Source: a virus. From it: DNA of 64,000 nt. This document shows positions 19,401 to 54,185 of the stretch, in pieces (within the stretch, counting starts at the first letter, position 1; each line of letters begins with the position of its first letter). The stretch spans positions 43,690 through 107,689 of the IMG/VR virus record IMGVR_UViG_3300002092_001237. One strand, 5' to 3'. The notes under the pieces are model-generated. The model saw only the letters and a list, made by a program, of their open reading frames with translations. It had not been told where the DNA came from and ran no database searches. The translations under genes were made by a program, and so were the position numbers.

Positions 19401-22318
19401 GCAGTTTCTAGCACTATACTAGTATTTGCGCTACTGTAAGCATCACCTAATTGTAGAACTGCTGTTCCAGTTGAATCAGTGAATGACACGATCTTATCGA
19501 TCCTATATCGTAGCCCATTTACATAGAAAGCAGTTGGCGTACCTGGAACTCTATTAACTTTACCATTTAGTGGTCTAGCCTGTTTGAAAGTTAATCCTGA
19601 TACTGTTATCTGTGTTACTGGAGTTCCCTGTGTTAAAGCAGTAGTTATGGTTACTGGTATTCTGCCACTATAACCATCGACTAATGCACCGCCACGGAAC
19701 GCTTTGGCGTTAACGGATGCAGAAATACTTGAACAGTTTTGTATGTATGGCGACTTAGTTAATATCTGTCCTTCCGGATCTAATACTGTTGCGAATCCAC
19801 CATGTCCTTGTATAGTAAAATCTTTTAACCCCGTTGCATCGTTCATTAGGAACATATCAATGTCTTTGTTGTTCCTCGGCGGGTTGAATGTAGCACTGTT
19901 TGATAACGAATAAGAAACTATATCAACTAACGCATTCGCAACAGTTACACCATCGGGGACAGTTGGTAGATTTGATTCTGCTATATATGCTACTGCACTA
20001 TTTTGTGAGACACTATCGGTATTCAATTTAAAAGGAGTAGTAGTATATGTATCTAAAATCGTATGTGATAAAATATTAGGTATGAGTTGTTTTAAGTAAT
20101 CAAGCCCTGCCTTACAGACGGTTCTGTAACCACTTGAGTTAGTATACACAGTAGTGTTATAGAATCTGTAAGCAGCATTAACTACACCAGCAGTATCACC
20201 TTTAATCAAATCATCGCAGATAGCACTTATGACTAATCCAACATCTCTCTGTGATTTAGTTTTATCAAACGTATTGCTGAGACTATTTGTTGCCGCATAG
20301 TTTAGCATATATTGATAGACTTCTGCTTGCATAAATGCACTGTTTAATGATAGCATCGTAGATGTGTTATTATATCCTCCAGCATTAATGTTAGAATATA
20401 TAGTCTGACTGTTAACTGTTATATTGCTCGGGTTACTAATGGTCCAGCTGAGTCCAGATCCACTGGTAATCTTGATGGGACTGCTTATTCCTGATCCTGA
20501 TAATACTTGACCAACTGTAATCGTTCCAGTAACTGTTCCAGTAGCAACGGTTAATGTTCCCCCGCTTATGCTACCTGAGAATACAGCATATCCAGGACCG
20601 ATGTCTAGAGGTTTAGTTGGATCTGCTAGATAATAATATCCATATCCCGTAGTAGCGACGATAGGAGCAGCGACACTAACTGATACGTTGTATGGATTGT
20701 TAAGAACCCAACTAGATCCGCTACCCGAAGCGATACTGACTGATGCTGTTATATTACCGTTAGCTCCTGTTAAAAATTGGCCTGCTGCGATAGTTCCTGT
20801 TATTGCGCTAGTTACTGTTAATACGGATCCAACTATAGTTCCACTGAATGTAGCATTTCCGATAGCTGTATTATTTGTAGTCAATCCGTCGATCACAGGA
20901 TCACGATAGAAGTACATAGACCTCCACGGACTTGCGCTAGCTGCATCCTTTGGACGTATGATAGTTCTACGCATTTCAGATCCAATGATACTGACATTTT
21001 TAGGAACACGGATTGGCAGATGTTCTTCGTATATTCCACTCTCTAGATAAATGGCGACCTGTATCTTCGGAGTCGCCTGATCGAAATAGAGATTTTCCCC
21101 AGTTTGGAAAGTACCAATAGTGCCTTGTATATCGATAAGATCGTAACCGCTTACTACGCCCCAGTACTTATTGATCGTACCAACTGCTCCCGACGACCCA
21201 CCTACGATTAATTTATTAGTAGTCAAATCTAGATTGCTTGGGTTACCTTGGTCGACGGTATTAGTTCCGTTTAAATTGGTTATCTGTAGACGAGTAACAG
21301 TAACACCGTCGTTTGTTGCAGTACCTACTGTGTAAACCGTACTAAGACTCGCACCAGCATTGACAGTGATTGGTTGCTTATAGTTTCCTGGTTCGATCGA
21401 TGAAGCATAAACTATATCTTCGGCATATTTACAAGCTTCACTAACGGATGAGAACGCATAAGCTAGAGCACGACCAACCCTATCAGTAGGTACGCTACTA
21501 TATCTCATCTGTGCTGTTGTTCTACCATTGGTGCTAACAAATAGATCAACAGTGCTAGGGAATTCGCTTATATCTACATAGTTTTTAGTCGCAGCATGTA
21601 GATCAACGGTAGGGTTAGCGTTAAGAGTTAAGGGTCCGGTTAGTGTATCTCCGCCACGGTAAACTACGTCTTTCCTCTGCATAACTTCTGTCGATAGATA
21701 ATTGCTAGTTAGGGTAGCATCATATCCAGTTACACCGATTTGTGGTCCGGTCGGTTGTGACCTCGATGTTAATGCACCAGTCATAGTATCGCCATCTATA
21801 TTGAGATAGTGTCTATCTCCGTAGCCTTTGGTTATAACAAAACTATCGATACCGGCAGAGCCAGTTGGACCTTGGAAACTATTAGCAGCATTGATCGCAC
21901 TAGAACTATCTGGATCTAATATGTTACCGATACTGAATAATCCCTTACCGTCGAGAGAACCACCTAGACTAGGAGTGGAATCTTGAGATACCTTCGCGCC
22001 TTTATTGGTTAATATGATCTTAGTTGGGTCAGTAGTGTAATCAACACCTATACCTGTTTCTGAACTGCCGTATAATTCTTTGGCTAATATATATTTCCCC
22101 GTAGCATTAACGATGAACATACTATTCGGAACTAGTGCTTGATCTTGATTAGGATCGTAATCACTTAGAGAAGTAAAAGGTATACCGCCCGAGTTACCTT
22201 TGGTTATAAACGAATATAATTCATAGAAGTTTTCATTGACTTTATTAAATGAATCTCTGATAGCATCACCGGTTGCATCGTTACCCTCTACACCGATATT
22301 AATAATTTTCTGTGTCAT
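13463..22318 (-). CDS. giant (2951 aa) tail fibre / baseplate appendage protein
   Basis: gp9/gp10-like N-terminus NDATGDAIRDSFNKVNENF, Thr/Gly/Ser-rich beta repeats, C-terminal ARYADLAENY autoproteolytic chaperone-like domain. Confidence 0.75.
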   Translation of the reverse strand: MTQKIINIGVEGNDATGDAIRDSFNKVNENFYELYSFITKGNSGGIPFTSLSDYDPNQDQALVPNSMFIVNATGKYILAKELYGSSETGIGVDYTTDPTKIILTNKGAKVSQDSTPSLGGSLDGKGLFSIGNILDPDSSSAINAANSFQGPTGSAGIDSFVITKGYGDRHYLNIDGDTMTGALTSRSQPTGPQIGVTGYDATLTSNYLSTEVMQRKDVVYRGGDTLTGPLTLNANPTVDLHAATKNYVDISEFPSTVDLFVSTNGRTTAQMRYSSVPTDRVGRALAYAFSSVSEACKYAEDIVYASSIEPGNYKQPITVNAGASLSTVYTVGTATNDGVTVTRLQITNLNGTNTVDQGNPSNLDLTTNKLIVGGSSGAVGTINKYWGVVSGYDLIDIQGTIGTFQTGENLYFDQATPKIQVAIYLESGIYEEHLPIRVPKNVSIIGSEMRRTIIRPKDAASASPWRSMYFYRDPVIDGLTTNNTAIGNATFSGTIVGSVLTVTSAITGTIAAGQFLTGANGNITASVSIASGSGSSWVLNNPYNVSVSVAAPIVATTGYGYYYLADPTKPLDIGPGYAVFSGSISGGTLTVATGTVTGTITVGQVLSGSGISSPIKITSGSGLSWTISNPSNITVNSQTIYSNINAGGYNNTSTMLSLNSAFMQAEVYQYMLNYAATNSLSNTFDKTKSQRDVGLVISAICDDLIKGDTAGVVNAAYRFYNTTVYTNSSGYRTVCKAGLDYLKQLIPNILSHTILDTYTTTPFKLNTDSVSQNSAVAYIAESNLPTVPDGVTVANALVDIVSYSLSNSATFNPPRNNKDIDMFLMNDATGLKDFTIQGHGGFATVLDPEGQILTKSPYIQNCSSISASVNAKAFRGGALVDGYSGRIPVTITTALTQGTPVTQITVSGLTFKQARPLNGKVNRVPGTPTAFYVNGLRYRIDKIVSFTDSTGTAVLQLGDAYSSANTSIVLETAGNKSMLATHFTQVNDIAYGIMVTNNALMELVSVFTYYCHTAYYSINGGQIRAVSGSNSNGFFGLKAEGSDPGEVPRYVTLADNLTQYARIYKKGSVYNGASYNAASGSLMTIVGYDYVPYSITEIQVYHPVAGKTTYTINNITPVVNSASISMIAKGGAGVGSITCTTQHGFSTSPNGGTPQVTNVTGSSGSYTITLVSAVNNFTSPTVVAPNYNIYQGQIVAGTNIGLTTSFTGTIASGTLTTLTTTGYQTLVPGQLINNGLLLTGSGVTYNIRVVAVATPGATFTGSISGTTLTIQSVTSGTVAVGQTLSGTGITGIVSISSGSALSWVIKNPNNISVTGIVITSSGNSWTVTNPNNLTFTSATLTAQLFPTVVSVKENTVTLSAPNSGAVSGTVTFYDTVTISGVPSSVTLSNGLPANSADFNGTFPVLNSGPSYSGTSGTGVALASPGLAVTSFTGTIAAATPTLLTVTGNPTYGAIAPGMVLIWTGGTNAAYTDNVIVNSLASTTSTGGVTTTTWNITNNSSKNSVTAVTMTGNTIGTTGQSSFQITTTAGTAYTAIPLASISGNSNLNKIYYIANLGSVVLTSAQWWSIGVSTGVATPAIGTSFIYNGISTTGLGTGVTVYESPLQVGQTVTFSTTPNPITSTATTYVSSILVSSGPNLTPLTMNSPTFTTTTAVVTISTNLVNPVTATGTFTFGVPTAGTIFGIPASIGIISGATLSTPATATLNTKIAKISLGTGIDGASTKFTENMNDGDFVVLRTTEIFKFYGNFVGLTSRPSTALDFTYDGISNNYRTVALSSNYYNNSRNPGDAGYGTTEALNENPTLVCTFSGYISGFTLNVVGSPSYGSLSAGLILSGTGINGSVITVSSTNASTWVITNSNNVSVGNVSVPVTINAYQGGTSLITIDSNYSYVTATVTNTAAIGGATTIRINELTDIDKSRIVGMEFGWVDQNVTPKGYTRTITAYTATSPGSYATLTLNSALPTNTIIPTGVSISAGIKSYGSSTISSSISGTGAVNTIVMASNSTFSYNGTYTRYVRIDSEIFSFTGISSTTTLTGVNRAQLGTVAAVHSTNAVVQEISGLLTANISTNRVTSHDFLNIGTGGYNTSNYPNSINGVPYEAKVDNNNAVDSVGSNTKAEVQEKNRGRVFFAATNQDGFFRVGRFFTVDQGTGTVSFSASIVLSGLTGLGFKSGVFITQFLNDATMPDIGDAVPTMSSVREYVNRRLGVDLNGTVSTSPIGSGFLPLQPGAGVTMKGTLDMGTNKIANVVAPSSGTDAANKSYVDQFLKLTGGTRYEIDLFVMGSTSQIAIATFARTGTTATIVTSQPNALSVGSIITISGLTDTSFNTTTTVTGIVSLSSFTYTTVSSTTVTSTPGGAGVVTVPDSIGMNSNKITNVGTPTDTADASTKGYVDTKANVAQLGDVLYTTPTGPTGSDMMVYSGTKWVNTRTAGDVVGALSATGPTGNILTYTIQSGAVVDSKVSATAAIDHTKLSIDNANASYGETITITGISGNGTTVTVTFSSPLQLDGLTPITGYTFPVGSRIVIAGVTGITGYNGTYIVSGATTNSAGSSTITYSSIISGVATLTTATIRSLRGAVSLDANQFTVSTGFASIKSNSLKLDRLLAISGNTVVGNSTAGAATPTAINFTAVVDGALAAAYSIPNSSVGTGVLTRLGSGQFGTITYSSTVISAQNLVSRDSSGNSTFGTVTAGAITSGGSITAGSITSGGSITAGSITSGGSITAGNLRISSIFGTTPAGVDAGEVFTWANSTINSNFTFSGGDNRVLSIGLNSNNHAYIRNYKGIDINSCDLYTLNILPLANATYNLGSSGLNWNLIYGTATQARYADLAENYVADQKYEPGTVLMIGGEQEVTLAKGQGTTKVAGVISEHPAHLMNSALEAEFVATVALQGRVPCKVIGKVSKGDMMVVSMVPGVAMASEDPRAGSIIGKALADYDGDRVSVIEVLVGKH
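14144..14253. repeat. 33-bp tandem repeat, about 3.3 copies (GSITSGGSITA)
   Basis: acctgctgttatactaccaccagaagttataga starting at 14144, 14177, 14210. Confidence 0.9.
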
Positions 22319-27273: not shown

Positions 27274-27348
27274 TGGTGGGCGGTGAGGGTTTCGAACCCC
27301 CGACCCTCTGGATGTAAACCAGATGCTCTACCGCTGAGCTAACCGCCC
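27274..27348 (-). tRNA. tRNA-Val(TAC)
   Basis: Cloverleaf, CCA encoded. Confidence 0.93.
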
Positions 27349-27388
27349 ATGATCTTATATTACTATATATGTTGATCGTTGTCAACAT

Positions 27389-27425
27389 AAAAAAAGCAGT
27401 AGTGTCTCCACTACTGCTCTTTTAT
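27389..27425. terminator. bidirectional intrinsic terminator
   Basis: AGCAGTAGTG/CACTACTGCT hairpin flanked by A and T runs. Confidence 0.75.
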
Positions 27426-27442
27426 TTCAGTCTAACTTGAAA

Positions 27443-27997
27443 TTAGAACTTGTAGTTTAGACCGATTGTGACAATGTTATTGTCCTTAATCTTCGTACTA
27501 TCGGACCAAGTATTGACAAAGCGATAACGTGCATCTGCTTCCCAATTCTTAGCAATAGCGTATTTCACACCGCCACCTACGTTGTAGATGGTCTTGTTAC
27601 CGTCGCGAACGCCATCACGGAAATCGTGATTCTGAACGCCAACCCCTGCTAGTGCATATGGAGTGAAACCATAGAATGCACCAAATGGGCTAACAACACC
27701 ATTGGCAGTTACGCGAGTCTGGTTCGCTGAGGAACCCTTCTTGAACTGATTATCCACTGCGATTTCTGTAGCGAATAATGGGTTCCACTTGTAGCCAACT
27801 ACGCCACCCACAGAGGATGGATTGTCAGTTACGTTGCGGTCCATCTTTACTGCACCACCGGCATTAACACCGACGTACCAGCTCTCAGGAGCAGTTACGG
27901 CAGGAGCAGCAGGTGTAGCCTTCTTTTCTGGAAGATTCGCTGCAGATGCAACGGAAGCTGTCAAGATAAGAGCGACTGCTGTGATAATATTTTTCAT
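27443..27997 (-). CDS. outer-membrane beta-barrel protein (Omp25/RopB/OmpA-like)
   Basis: Signal peptide, AANLP.KK..PA..WYVGVNAGG, amphipathic strands, C-terminal GLNYKF. Confidence 0.85.
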   Translation of the reverse strand: MKNIITAVALILTASVASAANLPEKKATPAAPAVTAPESWYVGVNAGGAVKMDRNVTDNPSSVGGVVGYKWNPLFATEIAVDNQFKKGSSANQTRVTANGVVSPFGAFYGFTPYALAGVGVQNHDFRDGVRDGNKTIYNVGGGVKYAIAKNWEADARYRFVNTWSDSTKIKDNNIVTIGLNYKF

Positions 27998-28105
27998 TGT
28001 TTTTTCCTTTTGTTTAGAATAGTAATTATACACTTAAGACTTGTTGGATTACGAGTCTTGAGTTTCGACTACCCCGTTCATTCTTTTTTACAGAACCAAC
28101 GAGTA

Positions 28106-28369
28106 TTATTTAGTTGTAAGAGGCTTTGCAATAACCGGTACTAAAACAACTGGAGTTGTATTTGCTACTGGTGCAACCATTGGCTTAATAACGACTGGAG
28201 TTGTTGGTGCTGGAGGTGCAACCATTGGCTTAATAACGACTGGAGTTGTTGGTGCTGGAGGTGCAACCATTGGCTTAATAACGACTGGGGTTGGGGTCGG
28301 AGCCGATGCTGCTGATGCTGCATTAACGAACGCAAAAAGTGCAAGTGCCACTGTTGTTGTCTTAATCAT
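28106..28369 (-). CDS. secreted Pro/Thr/Val-rich repeat protein
   Basis: Signal peptide followed by TPVVIKPMVAPPAPT repeats. Confidence 0.7.
   Translation of the reverse strand: MIKTTTVALALFAFVNAASAASAPTPTPVVIKPMVAPPAPTTPVVIKPMVAPPAPTTPVVIKPMVAPVANTTPVVLVPVIAKPLTTK
28170..28288. repeat. 45-bp tandem repeat, about 2.6 copies
   Basis: ggtgcaaccattggcttaataacgactgg recurs with 45-nt period. Confidence 0.85.
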
Positions 28370-28430
28370 AACTTTTTTCTCCTGTGTGTGTTAAGTTATA
28401 AGTGTATATTATAGTCTTATTTACGCCTTG

Positions 28431-28823
28431 TCAACCTGCGTGTTCTCGATAAAGTTTAAGACTTTCCGAGTTCAATGGTAAAAAATCCGTCGGTACAGAT
28501 TCAACCTTAAATCCATGCCCTTTGATGATTTTCTCTACTGTTTCGATCATCTCGTACCAATGAATATCGCTGATCCATTCAGTATAACCCGCCCCTTCAT
28601 TTAGGATCATCTTCTTATAGTGCTTTTTTACTTCTCGTTCGAGACGTTCAATTTCTCCGCCGTCTCCAACCCAACAATGCTGCCAGTTACATTTAAAGCG
28701 AGGACCCAAAGCATTTTGATAAGTTCCAAGGCGACCGTGCGCCTTGGAAAGTGTTGTGATACCTGCCTTAGTATCGACTCCACCATCGGGCGGAGACATC
28801 AGGTAGAATAATTTTTTAGACAT
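28431..28823 (-). CDS. hypothetical protein, GIY-YIG/T5orf172-like
   Basis: FYLM..KAGIT..RL..YQ..LE..VK..YTEW pattern. Confidence 0.5.
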   Translation of the reverse strand: MSKKLFYLMSPPDGGVDTKAGITTLSKAHGRLGTYQNALGPRFKCNWQHCWVGDGGEIERLEREVKKHYKKMILNEGAGYTEWISDIHWYEMIETVEKIIKGHGFKVESVPTDFLPLNSESLKLYREHAG

Positions 28824-29937
28824 TGAATCGTACCACTGGAGCAGCTACAGGTTCATTATTGATATATTTGTTATAGATCAGTAACAGCCCACTAACAACC
28901 TGTACAGGGTGATTATCACGACCAAGTGGATGCGTAGCTGAATACATAGACTTGATGTCTTCCTGCACTTTTTCTGCGCTACCGATATTGTTACGCAGAT
29001 ATTGACCTAGATCATCGTCAAATTGTGCGCTAGGCATCTGGCCAATCTGAGCATCGCACAGCGCATATAGCATAGTCATAGGTCGCATAACTTCTGCTTC
29101 GATGCTCGCCATGGGCCAATGTTTACGATGGAAAGTCAATGCTCGGGCGAGATACACACCTTTCATACCCATTTTATTTTGAAGTTCATAACATTCCCAC
29201 AGTGCTTCAAAATGCGTCACATCACCGGCTGTTCTCTTATAACGGTAAGGTTGGCAGTTATTAGCCTTAAGAATATTAAAGATAGATACGGTATCAACAT
29301 CTTTAGTTTCCAAAAGAATCATAAATTCATCATACCCACCAACAGGACGCTTAAAGGTTTTATTAATTCGAATAAAACTACGACCTGCGAGCCCAATCAT
29401 TGCTTCTTCGGCTTCGTCAAGTTCAGTCAAAGAAAGGTCATCAACGTCTGTATACCAAACAGGGATATGTGTCCAACCCCGGCGAATCAACAACTGTGAT
29501 GTATGACCGCCGTCCCATAGACAAAAATGAACAACGCCATTAAGGTCTACAAATTTAACAGCACAGGGAACGATAATCATTCTGCTGTCAAAATTGGCTT
29601 CGATATTCTTAATATGATTTGGAGCAACATCTCGCTGGAACCGAGGATCATAAAAACACTGTGACAATTCGACCCAAGCAAATTTAGGAATCTTTTTTAG
29701 TCCACGTGGATCAATAGTTTGACGATTAATCAACGGATTACCAATAACAGCCTCAATACCATCGGCGATATCTAAGATAGGGATTCTTTTTCCAGGATAG
29801 TTATTAACCATTTCACGGAGGTCGATCGCTTTATTCTCAACGTCAAATGGGATTTTAAATTTACCCAACCAGTTGCGGATTCGTTGCTTAGTCGGAATAA
29901 CAGTAGTCGCGGTAATAGTAGTAAGTGACATTTTCAT
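28816..29937 (-). CDS. ParB/Srx-like (DGQHR-type) domain protein
   Basis: DPRFQRD..I..NFD..LWDGGHT..F..IN. Confidence 0.6.
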   Translation of the reverse strand: MKMSLTTITATTVIPTKQRIRNWLGKFKIPFDVENKAIDLREMVNNYPGKRIPILDIADGIEAVIGNPLINRQTIDPRGLKKIPKFAWVELSQCFYDPRFQRDVAPNHIKNIEANFDSRMIIVPCAVKFVDLNGVVHFCLWDGGHTSQLLIRRGWTHIPVWYTDVDDLSLTELDEAEEAMIGLAGRSFIRINKTFKRPVGGYDEFMILLETKDVDTVSIFNILKANNCQPYRYKRTAGDVTHFEALWECYELQNKMGMKGVYLARALTFHRKHWPMASIEAEVMRPMTMLYALCDAQIGQMPSAQFDDDLGQYLRNNIGSAEKVQEDIKSMYSATHPLGRDNHPVQVVSGLLLIYNKYINNEPVAAPVVRFNV

Positions 29938-30055
29938 TTTATATCTCCAGTTTGCTAGATCTAATCTAGACTTTAAGGTTAACTCTTTAGTTTGTTAACT
30001 TTAAATACTATATGATATAATTTGATGTTAGTCAACCTGTATTTTAAAGGGTAAA

Positions 30056-30130
30056 TGGAGCGGGAGAAGGGATTCGAACCCTCGACATCAACCTTGGCAA
30101 GGTTGCGCTCTACCCCTGAGCTACTCCCGC
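30056..30130 (-). tRNA. tRNA-Gly(GCC)
   Basis: Cloverleaf, CCA. Confidence 0.95.
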
Positions 30131-30142
30131 ATCCTTTATTTA

Positions 30143-30217
30143 TGGCTGAGGAACTAGGACTCGAACCTAGATTGACGGAGTCAAAGTCCGCTCTCCTACC
30201 GATTAGAGGATTCCTCA
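30143..30217 (-). tRNA. tRNA-Gln(TTG)
   Basis: Cloverleaf, CCA. Confidence 0.93.
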
Positions 30218-30221
30218 ACAA

Positions 30222-30418
30222 TGGCGGCCCGATATTGACACGTTTTGGATGAGCAGGCTCGGGCCAACACCTCCTCCGTAGATAGGTACTGTCTGAAACC
30301 TATCCAGTTTGTGCTAGCTAGGCTAGCGCAATGTGTGGAAAGATAGACTCCACACGGTCTTCTATACAGGTCCCTGCTTGCCCCTATATAGACTGACGGT
30401 ATTTTTTGCAGGACCGCC
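30222..30418 (-). ncRNA. 197-nt multi-hairpin RNA with acceptor-like closing stem and CCA end
   Basis: GGCGGTCC/GGGCCGCC-A closing stem, four internal hairpins, AGCAGG/CCTGCT possible pseudoknot. Confidence 0.65.
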
Positions 30419-30423
30419 AAACT

Positions 30424-30497
30424 TGGTGAACCTACCGAGATTCGAACTCGGATCAACGGATTAAAAGTCCGCTGCTCTACCATTGAGCTATGGGTCC
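30424..30497 (-). tRNA. tRNA-Lys(TTT)
   Basis: Cloverleaf, CCA. Confidence 0.93.
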
Positions 30498-30526
30498 TAA
30501 GACCCATAACACACAGGTCTTTGTTG

Positions 30527-31030
30527 TTAATCGTGTCGCGGCATAGTGGCCGCTTCTTTTACGATTTCAATTACTTCATCTAACGAAGAACAGATAATTT
30601 TAGTTGTAATCCAATTATCATCTTCGCTACGTCCACCTACTTCTACCATATATCCATTGTCATACATGTTGATAGTAAATGACTCGTTAACCTTATGTAG
30701 TTTATCTGAGATCTTTGTAGTCATAACACTTTTCCTTTGTTTTAAGTTGTGGTATCGAACGATATATCCGTCATGTAAATTTTCTTCATTACGAACAAGC
30801 CAGTTACTTGTTACATTACTTTGAAGAATACCATATTTGGTGACAGATTGTTTTAGTTGTTTACCATTATCTGTTGTATTAGCTAACGGAATATGTATTT
30901 GTCCACTACCCTCTAATCTCGATAAGACATCATGTAAGATTGGTTTAAAAAACTCAAAACTAACAGTATCTTTTGTAGATTCTGGGGTATCAGTACCATA
31001 TGCTTCTTGCCAAGTTTTTGTCTTAGTCAT
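30527..31030 (-). CDS. hypothetical protein (possibly two in-frame products)
   Basis: 167 aa ORF; internal AAGGA SD before MTTKISD. Confidence 0.6.
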   Translation of the reverse strand: MTKTKTWQEAYGTDTPESTKDTVSFEFFKPILHDVLSRLEGSGQIHIPLANTTDNGKQLKQSVTKYGILQSNVTSNWLVRNEENLHDGYIVRYHNLKQRKSVMTTKISDKLHKVNESFTINMYDNGYMVEVGGRSEDDNWITTKIICSSLDEVIEIVKEAATMPRHD

Positions 31031-31039
31031 GTTTTCCTC

Positions 31040-31309
31040 TTATAGTGTTACGTGGTCTACTACTTCGTCTCGGTAGATTACGATCTTAGCAGTAGTATGC
31101 TCTCTTACGAAATCTTTAATACGAGCATCAATATAAAGATCTAGGTGCTCTCTCATCTTATTCTTAGATGGATCGTATCGGCTTTCTTTAATACTATCTC
31201 GTCTATTAACACTACCGCGTTGTTCGGCTTCCCAGGCATCGTCGGCAGCATCCATCATTTCTTCTAGTTCATCACAAAACGCATTCCAGTGTTTGTCTTG
31301 CTCGCTCAT
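31040..31309 (-). CDS. hypothetical protein
   Basis: 89 aa, SD GAGG. Confidence 0.65.
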   Translation of the reverse strand: MSEQDKHWNAFCDELEEMMDAADDAWEAEQRGSVNRRDSIKESRYDPSKNKMREHLDLYIDARIKDFVREHTTAKIVIYRDEVVDHVTL

Positions 31310-31325
31310 CGTTTCCTCATATAGT

Positions 31326-31400
31326 TGGCTGGAGTGGCAGGATTCGAACCTGCGACCAAGTGATTAACAGTCACCTGCGCTACCGCTGCGCCACACTCCA
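31326..31400 (-). tRNA. tRNA-Asn(GTT)
   Basis: Cloverleaf, CCA. Confidence 0.94.
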
Positions 31401-31406
31401 ACATTT

Positions 31407-31482
31407 TGGTGCCCCAGGAGAGATTCGAACTCCCACCACCTGGTACCTAAAACCAGTGTCTCTACCATTGGACTACTGGGGC
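31407..31482 (-). tRNA. tRNA-Leu(TAG), short variable loop
   Basis: CTGGT-TT-TAG-GT-ACCAG, A73, 76 nt. Confidence 0.88.
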
Positions 31483-31534
31483 AATCTTAATGTTCCTTAT
31501 ATTAACAGCATTTACTTATTGTGTCAACCTTTTA

Positions 31535-32143
31535 TTACCAGCCCCACCATTTCGTTAGATACTGTGGTCGATTTGCTCGCAACCACGGGAGTGCATCGTT
31601 ATTTAATTTGTTGTAATCAACACCTACAGTCTGTGATCCAACGTGATGTACATATGCTCGTGATATAAAGTTTTTAAATCCCTGTTCGTTTAGATCTTCG
31701 CAGATCACATCATCTGAATACCAATTTAATGGTCCGAACTGTGCAACATCAAACGCTTTCTTTGAGATCCAAGCAAATAAAGGTGATACAACACTAGCTT
31801 CTAAACATTGGCTTCCGTCGTTATGTTTAATATGTTGTGAATCACGGACGAAATCGGCTCTAGTTGCGACTATGCCTACGTTATCCCTATACTGCTGTTT
31901 TAACTGTTCAACGTCTTCCATGAGTATTCTCATAGTGTCTGGGCGTAACACAATATCATCATTTGCAACGATCATTTCATCACAGGTTTCAAATACTTCA
32001 CTCATTGCAGCATTGTATACTTCACCAAACGTAGCAGGGGCAGGACGAAATATGTTTAAAGTTGCTTCGGGAGCATAGTGTTTAACACTAGCTTCCATCA
32101 TTGGTAAGCAGGGCGATCCTGCTGTGCATACTACGATATTCAT
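31535..32143 (-). CDS. glycosyltransferase family 2-like
   Basis: FGEVYNAAM..IVANDDI..WYSDD..VHHVGSQT. Confidence 0.75.
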   Translation of the reverse strand: MNIVVCTAGSPCLPMMEASVKHYAPEATLNIFRPAPATFGEVYNAAMSEVFETCDEMIVANDDIVLRPDTMRILMEDVEQLKQQYRDNVGIVATRADFVRDSQHIKHNDGSQCLEASVVSPLFAWISKKAFDVAQFGPLNWYSDDVICEDLNEQGFKNFISRAYVHHVGSQTVGVDYNKLNNDALPWLRANRPQYLTKWWGW

Positions 32144-32163
32144 TTTAACCTTTCTTATATTGT

Positions 32164-32240
32164 TGGAGCATCCGGAGGGATTCGAACCCCCGACCGTCGC
32201 GTTCGAAGCGCGAAGCTCTAATCCACTGAGCTACGGATGC
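32164..32240 (-). tRNA. tRNA-Arg(TCG)
   Basis: Cloverleaf, CCA. Confidence 0.93.
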
Positions 32241-32250
32241 GTTGCCTGTC

Positions 32251-32346
32251 TCGGCTACTATTGTAATACTCGGCTGTAGGTGACTAACCCACAATATCTC
32301 ACCCCGTTAAGGGGAGCCACCGATTGCTATTAACAATAGTAGCCGA
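32251..32346 (-). ncRNA. Y-shaped structured RNA between tRNA-Tyr and tRNA-Arg
   Basis: Perfect 14-bp closing stem TCGGCTACTATTGT/ACAATAGTAGCCGA plus two inner hairpins. Confidence 0.55.
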
Positions 32347-32350
32347 TCTA

Positions 32351-32436
32351 TGGTGGGGCGTCCTGGTAACGATCCAGGCCAGTGCTTAGACGCTGGATTT
32401 ACAGTCCAGACCCCGTCCTTAGAGGTATACCGCCCC
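32351..32436 (-). tRNA. tRNA-Tyr(GTA), atypical T-loop
   Basis: CTGGA-CT-GTA-AA-TCCAG, long variable arm, T-loop ATCGTTA. Confidence 0.88.
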
Positions 32437-32530
32437 TTAACTCTTATTTTAACTATAATACCGTTGGCCTATTTTGTCAACTATTATAATAGTAGCAGAT
32501 AATTAATATTAATCCAAAAGGAGATATAAG

Positions 32531-32890
32531 ATGGATATTATTAATCAGATCCACGGCAGCAGTTTTGCTCTTGCTGTGATTGTTACAAGCGTAGTATGGT
32601 ATATTGCTTTTAAAATTTATGCATGGTGGCTTAAGAAAGAACTAAAAGAACAGATGCATAGCGATCTTCCTCTAAGTATGGAAGACATTGAGCATAGCCG
32701 TAATTTAGAAAGAGCAGTGCATGATGTAGAACTACGTCGTCGTGATCTAAAGATCGCAGAACAAAAGCTCGCAGTAGCCGAAGCTGATGCTAAGGTAGAA
32801 AGTAGCTTATCTCGTATCGACGAACTTAATCATGAGATTGAAGTTGTTAAGATCGACAAAGCAGCTAAGAAAGCTATCACTAAAATCTAA
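32531..32890 (+). CDS. membrane-anchored coiled-coil protein
   Basis: SD AGGGAG, one TM helix. Confidence 0.7.
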   Translation: MDIINQIHGSSFALAVIVTSVVWYIAFKIYAWWLKKELKEQMHSDLPLSMEDIEHSRNLERAVHDVELRRRDLKIAEQKLAVAEADAKVESSLSRIDELNHEIEVVKIDKAAKKAITKI

Positions 32891-32967
32891 TGGTGATCTC
32901 GGCATGACTCGAACATGCGACCCACGGTTTAGGAAACCGTTGCTCTGTCCAGCTGAGCTACGAGACC
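32891..32967 (-). tRNA. tRNA-Arg(CCT)
   Basis: Cloverleaf, CCA. Confidence 0.93.
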
Positions 32968-32977
32968 GATAAAAAAG

Positions 32978-33124
32978 TTGAGAGGGACGAGTGTCGACCC
33001 TCTTTTCAATATCCGGGTTCCCAAGGTTAAAAGAAATTCCCCTTAGGGACTCTTACCCGACCTCGATGTGGTTGGTTCACTATGTGAACGATCAACTCAT
33101 CCGTGCTACTATACTGCCTCTCAA
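32978..33124 (-). ncRNA. 147-nt structured, partly tRNA-like RNA
   Basis: TTGAGAGG/CCTCTCAA closing stem, two long hairpins, GAG-G-GTCGACA-CTC T-arm-like element. Confidence 0.55.
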
Positions 33125-33128
33125 AACT

Positions 33129-33218
33129 TGGCAGAAAGGGTGGGATTCGAACCCACGGAACGCTCTCACGTTCGTCAGTTTTCAAGACTGAAGGCATCAA
33201 CCGCTCGCCCACCTTTCC
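33129..33218 (-). tRNA. tRNA-Ser(TGA)
   Basis: Cloverleaf with long variable arm, G73, CCA. Confidence 0.94.
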
Positions 33219-33223
33219 AAACT

Positions 33224-33300
33224 TGGCGACCTGTAGGGGTAACGATCCCCTCATCTCTAGCGTGACAGGCTAGCGTCTTCACCATGCCGACTCACAGGCC
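33224..33300 (-). tRNA. tRNA-Asp(GTC), atypical T-loop
   Basis: CTAGC-CT-GTC-AC-GCTAG, T-loop ATCGTTA, G73. Confidence 0.88.
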
Positions 33301-33309
33301 AATATTCTC

Positions 33310-33421
33310 TAGATGCGTAGGCGCTCGAATCCCTCACCAGCGGACGCTTTGGACCTGTCCACCCCGGAGCCACCCAACGGGCTGGGCACCATTACCCCAT
33401 TAAGGCTCGATAACGCATCTA
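33310..33421 (-). ncRNA. 112-nt GC-rich structured RNA
   Basis: TAGATGCGT/ACGCATCTA closing stem, interrupted stem, three small hairpins. Confidence 0.55.
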
Positions 33422-33425
33422 ATCT

Positions 33426-33502
<77 letters not shown>

Positions 33503-33508
33503 ATAAAC

Positions 33509-33925
33509 TTACTTTAAAGACTTACTAATTTCTTCGTAAGCCCTTACTGTAGGGGGATGGATTTTATCCTTACCTACTTTATCACTTATATCCATAACGT
33601 AATCGCCGAATTCGCTAGAGATTTTCTGTACTAGATCATACTGTTTTGTTTTTACTTCCTTGCTAGGAAGGATCCAAATAACACGACCTTCTTTGATCAG
33701 TTTGCGTGTTTTAAGCATCCAATCATAACTTTTCTCATTTTGGTCGTTGCTGCCTAAGCTGATAACAACATACTTGTAAGTTTCCATATCAAACAGCGGA
33801 CGATTGTGATTTTTCTTATACCAGTCTGCACTGTTGATACCAATTTCAGTCATTCGAACACAATCAGGCTTTACACTTGCGATGCCCGAAGCGATACTAT
33901 CACCGATGATTAAACATTCTAGCAT
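33509..33925 (-). CDS. SGNH/GDSL hydrolase-like protein
   Basis: IIGDSIA, SLGSND, DKIHP. Confidence 0.8.
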   Translation of the reverse strand: MLECLIIGDSIASGIASVKPDCVRMTEIGINSADWYKKNHNRPLFDMETYKYVVISLGSNDQNEKSYDWMLKTRKLIKEGRVIWILPSKEVKTKQYDLVQKISSEFGDYVMDISDKVGKDKIHPPTVRAYEEISKSLK

Positions 33926-33993
33926 ATGTTCTCCTAACTGTTAAACTTAGTATATAATATGCTAGCATTTCTGTCAACCTGATAAATATTGCT

Positions 33994-34380
33994 ATGAAAA
34001 GAATAATAGCGGTACTAGCACTATTAACACTCTCGGCTTGTAACTCCATCGACGTTAGTACTGTCGTCCCAAGTTTCTGGGACGACAATCAAAGCCGTAG
34101 CATCATAAACACTTACCAATTAGCAGTAAACGTAGATTGTAAAGAACCACAAGCAGCACAAGCACAAGCGATTGTTCGTGAACTACAGTGGTTCCAACTT
34201 TATAGCGAAAGCAAAGGTATGCTACAGAAAGACGTCCTCAAACTGATTGAGCCTATGCAGACCACTTCTAAAGAATGGGCAGACAGAGAAGCACCTAGTG
34301 AGGGCTACTGTAAGATAAAGAAGAACATAATGATCACGCAGGCTAAAGCAGCATCATCAGCCGTATTAGGGAGATTCTAA
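33994..34380 (+). CDS. lipoprotein
   Basis: Lipobox LSAC after a signal peptide. Confidence 0.8.
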   Translation: MKRIIAVLALLTLSACNSIDVSTVVPSFWDDNQSRSIINTYQLAVNVDCKEPQAAQAQAIVRELQWFQLYSESKGMLQKDVLKLIEPMQTTSKEWADREAPSEGYCKIKKNIMITQAKAASSAVLGRF

Positions 34381-34610
34381 TGACTAAACTAAATGAACTC
34401 GTAGGTTGTGGCCACGGATGGGCCGAAGAACGTGCTCAGATGGCAATGGATATAATCGAGCAACGTAATAGCGGTGCTATTACACCCAGTGAGGCTAAAG
34501 AATTGCTCGAAGACCTAGTTGCTACTGATAAACTAGAAGCAGTAGCAGACAATATACAAGTTAAAGCAGCATTGATCAGTGCGATCTCTATCGCTGCTAA
34601 GTTTGCTTAA
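34380..34610 (+). CDS. hypothetical protein
   Basis: TAATG coupling to the lipoprotein gene. Confidence 0.7.
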   Translation: MTKLNELVGCGHGWAEERAQMAMDIIEQRNSGAITPSEAKELLEDLVATDKLEAVADNIQVKAALISAISIAAKFA

Positions 34611-34611
34611 T

Positions 34612-34688
34612 TGGTGCGTCTGATTGGACTCGAACCAACAACGCCTAGCACCTCAAGCTAGTGTCTCTACCAATTGGACTACAGACGC
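34612..34688 (-). tRNA. tRNA-Leu(GAG), short variable loop
   Basis: CTAGC-TT-GAG-GT-GCTAG, A73, 77 nt. Confidence 0.88.
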
Positions 34689-34692
34689 ATAT

Positions 34693-34767
34693 TGGAGGTC
34701 AGGATGGGAATCGAACCCACATAAAACAGTTTTGCAGACTGTCCCATAACCGTTCTGGCACCTGACC
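34693..34767 (-). tRNA. tRNA-Cys(GCA)
   Basis: Cloverleaf, U73, CCA. Confidence 0.92.
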
Positions 34768-34773
34768 ATAACT

Positions 34774-34849
34774 TGGTACCCGCTGTTGGTTTCGATCCAA
34801 CTCTTTCAGTTCCACAAACTGACGTGCTAGCCACTAACACTAAGCAGGC
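34774..34849 (-). tRNA. tRNA-His(GTG) lacking G-1, with A73
   Basis: TCAGT-TT-GTG-GA-ACTGA; base before G1 is C. Confidence 0.88.
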
Positions 34850-34856
34850 GTAAACT

Positions 34857-34933
34857 TGGTTGGCCCTGCTGGACTTGAACCAGCGACCTTTCGGTTATCA
34901 GCCGAATGCTCTCGCCATCTGAGCTAAGGGCCA
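34857..34933 (-). tRNA. tRNA-Ile(GAT)
   Basis: Cloverleaf, CCA. Confidence 0.92.
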
Positions 34934-34943
34934 TAAATACCCC

Positions 34944-35549
34944 ATGACCGAAAAACAAACAATATTAGCGATGTATTCGGGAGGATTAGATAGTTTATAT
35001 ATGGTATATAAACTTTTAACTTCGGATGAATATTCAGATAAACGTGTACATATACATCATGTACACATTCATAATGTAGAAGATCGTTTTAAAGCAGAAG
35101 CATTGATGGTTAATGCTGCGTTAACAGAATTAAAACAACGCGGCTTTACCTTTATCTATAGTGAAAGCAAAATCTCTAGTCCGGCATTTCGAAAAAATAA
35201 CAAAGTGTCATATATATACGATTGGGACATTGTAAGATTTTATGCCGGTTGGATAGCCAGCGTAAATCCAGATATTAGTGCTATTGCCATTGGGCGTGAG
35301 CAGTCTGACGCTGGTGGATTTAACCAATATGATTCAGCCGATGCGTTAGTAAAATACTTTACAGACATTCCTTTGATATATCCAGTGTTAGACATGCACA
35401 AATACGAAATGTATGACAAATTACCAGACTGGTTAAAAGATAAATTCTGGAGTTGTCGTACGCCTATCTATCAAAATAATATTCCCACTAAATGTGGTTT
35501 TTGTGGTACTTGTAAAAAATTATTAAAATACAACATCGGTGGATCATAA
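34944..35549 (+). CDS. queC: QueC-like PP-loop ATPase (7-cyano-7-deazaguanine synthase family)
   Basis: YSGGLDS PP-loop; WSCR..CGFCGTC Zn site. Confidence 0.7.
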   Translation: MTEKQTILAMYSGGLDSLYMVYKLLTSDEYSDKRVHIHHVHIHNVEDRFKAEALMVNAALTELKQRGFTFIYSESKISSPAFRKNNKVSYIYDWDIVRFYAGWIASVNPDISAIAIGREQSDAGGFNQYDSADALVKYFTDIPLIYPVLDMHKYEMYDKLPDWLKDKFWSCRTPIYQNNIPTKCGFCGTCKKLLKYNIGGS

Positions 35550-35556
35550 ATAATCT

Positions 35557-35874
35557 GTGACAAGTTACATTTACATTATAGGTAGTGATAAGCCTCCTTA
35601 TAAAGTAGGCATTAGCAAAAACCCACAGCGTAGATTACGTGATCTCCAAACTGGACATCCTTATCCTCTCGCCATACATTCTATAATTGAAACTCCAACT
35701 TCTAATAATAAACTATTAGAAAGCATCATTCATCGTAATCTAAAGCATCTACGCACGAGCGGAGAATGGTTTGATATACCTTTAGAAGTACTTAAATTAG
35801 AAGTTGATTTTGTTATGATACGCTACAGCGAAGATTCTACGCTTAAAACGAGAATAACTCAGAATATATTGTAG
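35557..35874 (+). CDS. GIY-YIG (T5orf172-type) nuclease domain protein
   Basis: YIYII..YKVGISKNPQRRLRDLQTG..LE..H..GEWF. Confidence 0.82.
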   Translation: MTSYIYIIGSDKPPYKVGISKNPQRRLRDLQTGHPYPLAIHSIIETPTSNNKLLESIIHRNLKHLRTSGEWFDIPLEVLKLEVDFVMIRYSEDSTLKTRITQNIL

Positions 35875-35877
35875 TGG

Positions 35878-35953
35878 TGGTGCCCAATGACGTATTCGAA
35901 ACGCCGACCTACTGATTACTAATCAGTTGCTCTGCCAGCTGAGCTAATTGGGC
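35878..35953 (-). tRNA. tRNA-Thr(AGT)
   Basis: ACTGA-TT-AGT-AA-TCAGT, Thr-type GCC/GGC acceptor. Confidence 0.9.
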
Positions 35954-35995
35954 TCTATTTTACTTATATCGTATATTTCTATATGACGTCGAATC

Positions 35996-36069
35996 TGGCA
36001 CCCTGTCTAGGAGTCAAACCTAGGCCCTCAGTTTTGGAGACTGATGTGCTATCGTAACACTTACAGGAT
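35996..36069 (-). tRNA. tRNA-Trp(CCA)
   Basis: TCAGT-CT-CCA-AA-ACTGA, G73. Confidence 0.85.
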
Positions 36070-36071
36070 AT

Positions 36072-36149
36072 TGGTCTGCGTGGCTGGATTCGAACCAGCG
36101 GTCCCCTGACTCCAAATCAGGTATGTTAACCAGACTACACCACACACAG
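36072..36149 (-). tRNA. tRNA-Pro(TGG)
   Basis: C1-G72, A73; A37 rather than the usual G37. Confidence 0.9.
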
Positions 36150-36156
36150 TTAAATT

Positions 36157-36233
36157 TGGTCCGCCCTACGGGTGTCGATCCCGTTACTCTACCTTGAAAG
36201 GGTAGTGATATAGCCAGCGTTATCTAAGGGCGG
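36157..36233 (-). tRNA. tRNA-Glu(TTC), atypical
   Basis: CTACC-CT-TTC-AA-GGTAG, T-loop ATCGACA. Confidence 0.82.
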
Positions 36234-36237
36234 CTAA

Positions 36238-36340
36238 TTGTCTCTGCAAGGATACACTTGGTAAAACCGATTCCACATATTACCGTTCACTAGTCATCGG
36301 TCGACATAACTAGAAGGAAAGTGTATCCATGGAGAAACAA
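36238..36340 (-). ncRNA. Y-shaped structured RNA at head of tRNA array
   Basis: GGATACACTT/AAGTGTATCC stem extended by TCTC/GAGA, inner hairpins CTAGTTAT/ATGACTAG and GGTAA/TTACC. Confidence 0.55.
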
Positions 36341-36437
36341 TGTCTCCTGCTCCGCTGAAACCACTTGTACAGCCATTTGGCCCACGTACTAGTCGGAGGT
36401 TGTGCTTATGCTTAGGGCACAACTGCCTGCGTATAAG

Positions 36438-36602
36438 TTAAACAGCGTGTACGTCTGTACTCTGTTTGTTTAACTTAGATTCTTTCTTTGCCTTTTTCTT
36501 TGCCTTTTTTTGTTCTACAATATCGTATATTTTTTGTTCTGTTTCGCGATCACCATTCTGGATAGCGTGAAATAATTTGGTTGCTAGTTCTGTCCATTTC
36601 AT
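36438..36602 (-). CDS. small basic protein (54 aa, below ORF-track cutoff)
   Basis: SD AGGGAG; MKWTELATKLFHAIQNGDRETEQKIYDIVEQKKAKKKAKKESKLNKQSTDVHAV. Confidence 0.65.
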   Translation of the reverse strand: MKWTELATKLFHAIQNGDRETEQKIYDIVEQKKAKKKAKKESKLNKQSTDVHAV

Positions 36603-36625
36603 TTCGTTTCTCCCTATATTCAGAC

Positions 36626-36661
36626 AACAAAAAACCCCGGTGACAATATGTTCCGGGGTTC
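36626..36661 (-). terminator. intrinsic terminator (attenuator)
   Basis: AACCCCGG-N12-CCGGGGTT followed by TTTTGTT. Confidence 0.85.
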
Positions 36662-36684
36662 CATGTGTATATGTGAATTACATA

Positions 36685-36765
36685 TTACAGCACAAGAACC
36701 CCCCTAGTCGGTTCCGACCAGCGATTAGATTTACTAAATGAACAAATAGTCATAGTGTTTCTCAT
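36685..36765 (-). CDS. putative attenuator leader peptide (26 aa)
   Basis: MRNTMTICSFSKSNRWSEPTRGVLVL; contains GGGGTTC complementary to the terminator 5' arm GAACCCC. Confidence 0.6.
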   Translation of the reverse strand: MRNTMTICSFSKSNRWSEPTRGVLVL

Positions 36766-36772
36766 TGTCTTT

Positions 36773-36803
36773 TATTTATACAATCTAATTAAGGGCTTGT
36801 CAA
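36773..36803 (-). promoter_or_regulatory. overlapping sigma70-like and T4-late-like promoter
   Basis: TTGACA-N17-TATAAA; the -10 box is part of TATAAATA. Confidence 0.65.
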
Positions 36804-36809
36804 GTCTGA

Positions 36810-37451
36810 TTATGAATTTTCTACAGGTGCAGTTAAAACTCGATCTAATTTCTTGCTTAGGTAATTTAGCAATACGCCATACACTGGCAGGATAACTAAA
36901 AGACTAACTATTAACTTAGTTCCAGTTTGGTTCATAGCGATAATGTGCCAATTCTCTGCCATATACGCATTTGCTGATTCATAGAACGCCACACCGAAGA
37001 AAGTGAAAGTGTCCAACACATTAGCAAATACTGCTGCAAGTGCCGGAGCAGCAAACCACATTGCAAAACGTTCACGTACCTTTTGGAATACGAAAACATC
37101 TAGCAAGCTAGAAACCAAATATGCACATCCACTCGCTACACCTATACGTAGTGCTACGCTTTCCGGTGCGCCGCCTGCTAGCACAACCAAGATACTGGCG
37201 ATAACAGCAGGAATAAATGCTATATTAATAACTGCCCGAGCATTCTCTTTATTGATAAGCCGGATAGTCAAATCAGTAGCAACAACTACTAGTGGAAATG
37301 TAAATGCTGCCCAAGTTAGTTTAATACCCCAGATATCAAATTTGATAGTCACGAGGTAGTTAGATAGTGCAATAATGAAAGTATGGAACAATACTAATTT
37401 TGCGATTAGCATTTTATCCATTCCGTCTAAACTAAAATATTTCTTTATCAT
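36810..37451 (-). CDS. yhhQ: VUT-family queuosine precursor transporter
   Basis: IIALSNYLV..TWAAFTFP..ATDLT..R..SQ-like LLDVFVFQK..DTFTFF; start at MIKKY because the longer ORF overlaps a tRNA. Confidence 0.85.
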   Translation of the reverse strand: MIKKYFSLDGMDKMLIAKLVLFHTFIIALSNYLVTIKFDIWGIKLTWAAFTFPLVVVATDLTIRLINKENARAVINIAFIPAVIASILVVLAGGAPESVALRIGVASGCAYLVSSLLDVFVFQKVRERFAMWFAAPALAAVFANVLDTFTFFGVAFYESANAYMAENWHIIAMNQTGTKLIVSLLVILPVYGVLLNYLSKKLDRVLTAPVENS

Positions 37452-37485
37452 TGTAATCCTTCTGTTAATAAATTGGCGGTGAGTG

Positions 37486-37576
37486 TGGCGGTGGGACAGG
37501 GATTCGAACCCTGGGTACTCTTGTGAAGTACAACGGTTTAGCAAACCGGCCCTTTCGGCCTCTCAGGCACCCCACC
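37486..37576 (-). tRNA. tRNA-Ser(GCT)
   Basis: Long variable arm, G73, CCA. Confidence 0.92.
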
Positions 37577-37598
37577 ATAAACACTCTTCCTATAATAA

Positions 37599-37672
37599 TG
37601 GAGCGGAGTAGGAGAATCGAACTCCTCGCTTTAGCTTGGAAGGCTAAGGTATTACCACTATACGAACTCCGC
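37599..37672 (-). tRNA. tRNA-Gly(TCC)
   Basis: Cloverleaf, U73, CCA. Confidence 0.94.
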
Positions 37673-38747: not shown

Positions 38748-39271
38748 TCCCAGAGATTAAGATAGAACTTACCAAAAAGATCCAGACCTTCCTGTATTTT
38801 TTCGTAATACGCAGTATAGCCTTTTTGATCAAATGTAGCAGTATGCCCTGCCCCGGGTACCATTTGTTGTCCGCCCTTGACCGGTTTAAAAGTAAAGTTG
38901 CTAACACCGTGATGGAATTGATCATCTCGATCTTCTAAACAGATCTGTTCAAAACTCCAAATCATCTTGTCCATCGCGTCTTCCCATTGATTATGCCCAA
39001 GTTCCCATGCCTTGTTGTCGTCATCCTTATAAAACTCAAAAGTCATTTGAGGCCAATGATTATTTGTCTCATCTTTGAACGCTGGCATATTACTAGGACT
39101 ACCATGCTTCGCTGCTCTTAACTGTTTAAGCATTGGTAGTATGATGTCGCCGAGAGTTTCGGCCATATTCCAAGTGTCTTGCCTGTCGATCCTGATAGAC
39201 TTTTTTTGTTTAGCATCAGGATCACGACGTAGAGTGCGATCACTTGGAAAACGGCCGATGTATATTTTCAC
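38744..39271 (-). CDS. hypothetical phage protein
   Basis: [28 protein letters not shown]. Confidence 0.7.
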
Positions 39272-49301: not shown

Positions 49302-49357
49302 GATTCTCCTTTTGTTAAGCAAGAAATAAATGCTGTATTCCGAAGCAATACAGCATT
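49302..49357 (-). promoter_or_regulatory. ROSE-like RNA thermometer of dnaK
   Basis: AATGCTGTATT/AATACAGCATT hairpin plus TCTTGCT-TAACAAA-AGGAGA. Confidence 0.65.
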
Positions 49358-53350: not shown

Positions 53351-53375
53351 AAGCAGTTTATTTATAGCAGTGTTT

Positions 53376-54152: not shown

Positions 54153-54185
54153 TGGATATAAGAGTAGCACCTGTAAAGGTATTTG

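Follow-up and report, generated by a model that had tools for sequence, protein, structure and literature searches.

The window analysed here is a stretch of 64,000 nucleotides, namely the 3′ 64 kb of an IMG/VR virus record of 107,689 nt (IMGVR_UViG_3300002092_001237, positions 43,690–107,689). CheckV places the completeness of this record at about 25%; the complete genome would then measure several hundred kb, as in a jumbo phage. An array of 21 tRNA genes, all on the minus strand and with encoded CCA, was identified at 27.2–37.7 kb by ARAGORN and Rfam in a region of about 40% GC. The genes around these tRNAs include DnaK, ClpP, bilin reductase, ribonucleotide reductase, UvdE and QueD, together with a YhhQ-type transporter gene and a gene for an outer-membrane beta-barrel protein. 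Cultured phages in GenBank that resemble the region were not found by blastn in distant mode, and megablast matches only tRNA-Lys. Around relatives of the flanking 373-aa gene, no tRNA arrays are seen.

The window also carries a permuted tmRNA of the two-piece type (53057–53393, minus strand), matched at 116 bits by alpha_tmRNA and at 98.7 bits by tmRNA_permuted and uncalled by ARAGORN. A GIY-YIG endonuclease-like gene (53376–54170) abuts it, and permuted tmRNAs are present in the related contigs L003 and L147 (tags ANDEVFALAA and ANDSQFALAA). Two-piece tmRNAs are found in alphaproteobacteria and some cyanobacteria. Host-like genes on the minus strand encode a ferredoxin-dependent bilin reductase, a full-length DnaK, ClpP and an OmpA-like beta-barrel protein, and together with the two-piece tmRNA they may hint at a Gram-negative host. 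The coordinates listed for the host-like genes and large ORFs, all on the minus strand, are 45251–45928, 47382–49322, 39268–39873, 27443–28033 and 13463–22318; a 2951-aa ORF adjoins one of 1300 aa. A 167-aa protein is encoded at 30527–31030 (minus strand), and its C-terminal ~65 residues (…NESFTVNMYDNGYM…) form a small domain that recurs, often as a separate protein of 68–75 aa, in at least 110 viral contigs and that has no Pfam match.

Within the array, a 197-nt element occupies positions 30222–30418 of the minus strand, on which all 21 tRNAs are encoded too. Upstream of it, tRNA-Lys(UUU) with its encoded CCA (30424–30497, minus strand) ends 5 nt before the element, and downstream tRNA-Gln(UUG) (30143–30217, minus strand) starts 4 nt after it; both neighbours were called by ARAGORN and Rfam. 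The 107.7-kb contig holds a single copy. In the following, element position i corresponds to window coordinate 30419−i. The gene upstream of the element has close protein relatives (P0001–P0004), with identities that include 86%, 72% and 71%.

Relatives of the element in freshwater phages

A search with nhmmer using the single sequence identified one relative, L199:10562–10780, which sits just downstream of a counterpart to the gene that stands ahead of tRNA-Lys in the window. With the window copy as its only sequence and six local hairpins as its structure, a covariance model (R1) matched this relative at 44.4 bits (E 9e-11), and it also matched a third copy, L193:10799–11004, at 39.4 bits (E 2.8e-9). 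Both L199 and L193 are large freshwater phage fragments with 20–24 tRNAs per 20 kb examined. The gene order is shared by the window and both fragments, and consists of a small NMYDNGYM-domain gene, the element, tRNA-Gln, tRNA-Gly(GCC) and tRNA-Val; in the window and L199, tRNA-Lys(UUU) directly follows the small NMYDNGYM gene. In the two relatives the element is flanked by small ORFs and is not abutted by tRNAs on both sides. Immediately upstream of it lies a conserved 53-aa ORF (L193:10632–10793 and L199:10353–10514) with the sequence features …LTWCLDIL.RIK…DSKGW…WLVKQALKAERE. Nine further viral contigs have this ORF and lack the element; tRNA-Gln(UUG) is nearby in eight of the nine, and the ninth has tRNA-Gln(CUG).

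Attempts to enlarge the family left it at three distinct members, the window copy and those of L199 and L193. Eight pattern scans of viral contigs were run in all. Those for the module around the last hairpin (H6, described below), extended to JGI metagenomes and screened, returned only the L199 and L193 contigs plus chance matches in GC-rich coding DNA. The same kind of scan in GTDB genomes, also screened, gave no new member among the matches listed. A 3′-domain model built from the three sequences (R2) was run over related loci totalling 1.39 Mb and gave no new member, and the window holds no second copy of the H6 motif. The model R1 recovered only the L199 copy from 45 related virus records; this is a weak negative, since its coarse first-look filter also missed the L193 copy.

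Part or all of the element's stretch is present in 20 public DNA runs from 12 studies, nearly all of them freshwater or lake-water metagenomes; no RNA run was among those listed. Near-identical copies come from two independent studies, in a comparison of contigs from four runs, and the runs differ in year. A variant of about 94% identity, found in runs X6 and X7, has ten substitutions and one deletion within the element.

The related arrays have further features in common. A second conserved non-tRNA element is found at 36340–36425 of the window (minus strand), at about 4490–4575 of L199 and at about 2025–2110 of L193. It consists of ~85 nearly identical nucleotides (...CCCUAAGCAUAAG...GUACGUGG...GUACAAGUGGUUUC...) and stands upstream of tRNA-Glu in the window and L193; three pairs of its first hairpin show changes on both sides, and it has no Rfam match at the gathering threshold. 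Three inter-tRNA gaps on the minus strand of the window (32241–32349, 32968–33128 and 33301–33425) form long closed folds with minimum free energies of −43, −48 and −43 kcal/mol; a search with nhmmer gave no homologue of these gaps in either L199 or L193. ARAGORN called neither tRNA-Ala nor tRNA-Phe in the three arrays (window 27274–37672 and the L199 and L193 loci), which cover most other amino acids, and it called tRNA-Tyr in L199 and L193 and not in the window.

A structured RNA outside the known families

The predicted minimum-free-energy fold of the minus strand has −77 kcal/mol, compared with −56.9 ± 4.7 kcal/mol for 200 dinucleotide shuffles, none of which matches it (z −4.3). The fold of the plus strand is weaker (z −2.1), and three G·U pairs of the helices can form only on the minus strand, where the plus strand would have A·C mismatches. 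A first-pass annotation of this DNA, made from the sequence alone, had described the complementary segments of a large RNA at 30222–30418, and all of them were found on the minus strand. The four hairpins that it listed belong to the minimum-free-energy fold and are upheld by covariation with the two homologues.

That annotation had seen no signatures of RNase P, tmRNA or group I introns and had called for an Rfam search. Rfam 15 gave no match on 30222–30418, whether at the gathering threshold or with permissive filters and a cut-off of E ≤ 10, and so yielded neither these three nor any other known family; the families covered include RNase P, tmRNA, group I and II introns, 6S, SRP, self-cleaving ribozymes, GOLLD and ROOL. 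Only unrelated noise matches were obtained with the L193 and L199 homologues. ARAGORN and the tRNA model RF00005 call both neighbouring tRNAs and not the element, even at E ≤ 10, and no D-arm, anticodon arm or T-arm is found in it; the tRNA features of the family amount to a 7-bp stem followed by NCCA in two of the three members. There is likewise no tmRNA match at the element with ARAGORN or Rfam, the permuted tmRNA of the window lying elsewhere (53057–53393). The earlier proposal of an undescribed large non-coding RNA or ribozyme stands in its first half, given the lack of an Rfam family, the covariation and the absence of a reading frame, and finds no support for its second, as no Rfam family of self-cleaving ribozymes matches the element.

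A conserved protein-coding frame, the other outcome that the annotation had set against an RNA gene, was looked for in the three members and is absent. One frame is open throughout the window copy, and stops interrupt it twice in L199 and once in L193. Comparison of the window copy with L199 and L193 by tblastx revealed no translated similarity, and the translated similarity between L199 and L193 switches between frames; the loops of their H6 hairpins differ in length by 1 nt. A short ORF starting from the conserved UUG GCC CGA was considered and rejected, for its peptides are unrelated and of unequal length in the three members. The element is a real, conserved and structured non-coding RNA outside any described family; its structure, conservation, synteny and absence from the known families are shown by this analysis.

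Six local hairpins and a putative loop–loop contact

The covariation counts come from just three sequences, aligned by fitting them to the structure of the model itself. In this model-guided alignment of three members, standard pairs occupy 95.3% of cells. Changes on both sides are seen in 18 of 45 pairs, compared with a mean of 7.7 in shuffles (0 of 500 reach 18) and with 0–3 in controls with slid partners. P1, H2, H3, H4 and H5 all covary. The covariation, combined with the absence of a conserved frame, supports an element of six local hairpins, in which P1 is followed by H2–H5 and H6.

The first hairpin, P1 (30395–30418, minus strand), pairs GGCGGU with ACCGUC (positions 1–6 and 19–24) around a 12-nt loop. 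In the order window, L199 and L193, its pair 1–24 reads GC, GC and AU, pair 6–19 reads UA, AU and an unpaired AA, and pair 2–23 reads GU, GC and GC, such that U6–A19 is swapped to A–U in L199 and G1–C24 is replaced by A–U in L193. The H2 hairpin (30361–30392) joins UCUAUAUAGG to CCUGUAUAGA with the loop GGCAAGCAGGGA and shows changes on both sides in seven of ten pairs; H3 (30333–30355), GUGUGGA/UCCACAC, does so in four of seven. Next come H4 (30313–30327), GCUAGC-CUA-GCUAGC with a three-base loop, and H5 (30279–30306), UGGAUAGGU/ACCUAUCUA; both have 100% of cells paired, with both-sided changes in two and three pairs, respectively, and the apical AGC-NUA-GCU of H4 is kept across members. A single-stranded linker, J5/6 (30266–30278, CGGAGGAGGUGUU), retains G-G-AG-U-UU in 3/3 members and leads to H6 (30226–30265), whose 7-bp stem GGCCCGA/UCGGGCC (positions 154–160 and 187–193) closes a loop of 26 nt in the window and 34–35 nt in the relatives. 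All these features lie on the minus strand, and the RNA ends in a 3′ tail, GCCA in the window (30222–30225).

The ~94% variant from lake water agrees with this arrangement. Nine of its ten substitutions and the deletion fall at unpaired positions of the six-hairpin model, and the tenth changes A116–U137 of H5 to G·U, which keeps the pairing. With 54% of positions unpaired, a binomial estimate of the chance that at least nine of ten fall there is p ~0.02. The avoidance of stems by substitutions, the syntenic position in three phages, and compensatory changes that keep pairing although the 5′ halves are barely alignable all weigh against a functionless, fortuitously structured and GC-richer intergenic remnant, a reading that we consider the least probable of all, even if the number of known members, only three, is in its favour.

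H6 differs from the other helices. All seven of its pairs are identical in the three members, whereas every other helix varies, and its flanks, UU...G[CU]CU and UA, are invariant too. Such invariance amid freely covarying helices suggests sequence-specific recognition, and H6 has the look of a likely recognition module, most simply for a protein; the invariance could also have another cause than protein binding. A stem of exactly 7 bp that is invariant, precedes N-CCA in two members (GCCA in the window, UCCA in L199) and lies in an array whose tRNAs encode CCA may recall the acceptor stem of a tRNA; H6 might be a relic of one, engaged as a minihelix by an aminoacyl-tRNA synthetase, RNase P or the CCA-adding enzyme. 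We regard such descent from a tRNA as improbable: AGCU follows H6 in L193, the T-, D- and anticodon arms are absent, neither ARAGORN nor the Rfam tRNA model matches the element even at E ≤ 10, and within the H6 loop of 26–35 nt no helix is conserved that might stack like a T-stem. A T-stem-like UAGGAU/AUCCUA beside H6 was rejected, as it is present in L199 and L193 and not in the window and competes with the P1/H2 loop pairing.

The first-pass annotation had drawn a different, closed molecule with tRNA-like ends, in which an 8-bp terminal stem, GGCGGUCC/GGGCCGCC, is combined with a distal pseudoknot between AGCAGG and CCUGCU, possibly as a ribozyme. Both pairings are perfect in the window, where the stem is part of the minimum-free-energy fold. 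The stem is not conserved, however: 75% of its cells are paired, 6 of 24 are unpaired, covariation is nil, and in each of the four variable pairs every change is one that breaks the pair. In the six-hairpin model its 5′ strand is assigned to P1 and its 3′ strand to H6. The CCA end that had been noted holds for the window and for the UCCA of L199; the AGCU of L193 makes clear that CCA is not a feature of the family, and with the stem broken and CCA lost there, the tRNA-like ends fail in the relatives. As for the pseudoknot, the ~94% variant alters it by three changes, the distal CCUGCU (162–167) becoming UCUACU and G42 being deleted as well, and the covariation check in the homologues gave segments that are not complementary in either L199 or L193. 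Complementarity of the size of AGCAGG/CCUGCU between those loops is at chance level, and a pattern scan for it in viral contigs gave at least 118 matches, none related to the element by nhmmer. With no match to a ribozyme family in addition, the closed molecule appears very unlikely.

The AGCAGG loop more likely pairs with CCUGC in the loop of P1 than with the distal CCUGCU. The P1-loop segment CCUGC (positions 7–11, 30408–30412, minus strand), i.e., the first five bases of this loop, faces GCAGG in the loop of H2 (positions 42–46, 30373–30377) as a putative kissing partner. The two read CCUGC/GCAGG in the window, CCUAC/GUAGG in L199 and CCCAC/GUGGG in L193, with two compensatory changes at fixed positions. 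All unpaired segments were compared systematically, with the kissing pair counted by script, and this is the sole complementarity between segments of at least 5 Watson–Crick bp in all three members. Among shuffles, 3.75% reach a 5-bp pairing at some place in the molecule, which is modest support, and on this basis the P1 and H2 loops probably kiss via five base pairs. Pairings of H5 with H6 and of H2 with H6 through their loops (4 bp or more in every member) were dismissed as chance, since 74% of shuffles reach this level. A sigma-70-like sequence, TTGGTA-N17-TACAAT, overlies the P1 5′ strand and loop in L199 (10545–10575); it is probably coincidental, because the same bases are kept as RNA structure in the other members.

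Proposed release from the tRNA array and possible roles

With moderate confidence, somewhat on the side of belief, we propose that the element is a new non-coding RNA of ~200 nt, which has six hairpins and a kiss between P1 and H2, is co-transcribed with the array, is released by tRNA processing and acts in trans as a stable RNA; this estimate is joint with the view that the family belongs to a small clade of freshwater jumbo phages, within tRNA arrays. Co-transcription, processing, stability and the role in trans are what we infer from the setting and the fold. Neither a sigma-70-like promoter nor an intrinsic terminator is predicted from consensus matches on the minus strand at 31499–30035, and the element is thus most simply part of the array transcript, toward which its spacing of 5 and 4 nt from the flanking tRNAs also counts. 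The polycistronic transcript would contain tRNA-Leu, tRNA-Asn, two small genes, tRNA-Lys, the element, tRNA-Gln and tRNA-Gly. In bacteria, tRNAs mature by an RNase P cut at the 5′ end and by trimming at the 3′ end. Host RNase P would cut the 5′ end of the downstream tRNA-Gln, endo- and exonucleases would trim the 3′ end of the upstream tRNA-Lys, and the element would be released with a few extra bases. Its compact fold may then shield it from degradation and leave a stable RNA that would act in trans, most likely via a protein bound to H6. The L199 and L193 copies are not abutted by tRNAs on both sides, so that release by tRNA processing alone is not general. Genes for a CCA-adding enzyme, Ro/TROVE or RtcB are absent from the 108-kb contig, which represents only ~25% of the genome.

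The same setting could be read in favour of a cis-acting element for processing or stability, a folded spacer that blocks 3′ exonucleases or guides RNase E or RNase P and has no role once released. Such a spacer would fit a tightly packed transcription unit without signals of its own, other structured gaps occur in the same array, and in L199 and L193 the element comes directly after the conserved 53-aa ORF, resembling a stabiliser in a 3′ UTR. A barrier, however, needs no six covarying hairpins, loop–loop pairing or sequence-conserved stem, and the nine further contigs with the 53-aa ORF do not have the element. We judge a purely cis-acting spacer to be unlikely, if still worth weighing against a stable RNA that acts in trans.

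For fifty years, small stable RNAs such as RNAC and RNAD of T4 have been recognised in phage tRNA clusters; the large ornate RNAs GOLLD and ROOL came to light near phage tRNA islands more recently, and we know of no function for any of these. A non-tRNA RNA inside a phage tRNA cluster is accordingly a kind already known; the sequence and architecture of the present one are new. RNAC and RNAD are small RNAs transcribed from the tRNA region of T4, with unknown roles (PMC3014915; PMC9697503). In the T4 record, rnaD follows tRNA-Arg after 1 nt and rnaC after 6 nt. RNAC (species 1) and RNAD (species 2) are non-tRNA molecules of 119–139 nt on the tRNA strand, within the cluster and 1–6 nt from the neighbour gene. 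The element has a placement of this type, on the same strand, with tRNA-Lys 5 nt ahead of it and tRNA-Gln 4 nt behind. No homology was detected, with 1.8 bits as the best score of R1, filters off, on T4 69000–76000. RNAC has a tRNA-like T-arm (CCGGGUUCGAAUCCCGG), whereas the element has none, is longer than either T4 RNA and has six hairpins. The element is placed like RNAC and RNAD and is not homologous to them.

GOLLD and ROOL are structured RNAs, of unknown function, found in phages and prophages and often near tRNA islands; a length of more than 800 nt is reached by many members of GOLLD (PMC12286853). Rfam contains both families and neither matches the element, nor does anything suggest multimeric cages for it. 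ROOL itself measures ~580 nt. Bacterial Y RNA-like RNAs, YrlA and YrlB, are modular multi-hairpin molecules with tRNA-like parts, and some of them are encoded by phages. YrlA gave the sole regional Rfam match, at 22.7 bits (gathering threshold 69), and this match falls on tRNA-Lys and the DNA upstream and not on the element; the L199 match to YrlB (E 1.7) falls on the strand opposite the element, and a TROVE/Ro gene is missing from the 108 kb.

A bolder proposal, which we put forward as speculative and improbable, is that the element is the founding member of a compact class of phage RNAs, in which a 5′ domain with kissing loops is joined to an invariant acceptor-like minihelix plugged into the host tRNA pathway. 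If this were true, the RNA could, for example, engage RNase P, the CCA-adding enzyme or tRNA-targeting defence nucleases in the manner of a decoy or competitor, and the tRNA supply of the phage would be protected or tuned.

The immediate impact is modest because the family is tiny. The size of the element suits direct structure probing as well as binding and cleavage assays. Beside the RNAs already known from phage tRNA clusters, the element adds an unrelated, mid-sized family supported by covariation, from uncultured freshwater jumbo phages. Given that the same arrays hold at least one further conserved non-tRNA RNA, phage tRNA arrays may generally be a home for non-coding RNAs that exploit tRNA processing for their maturation.
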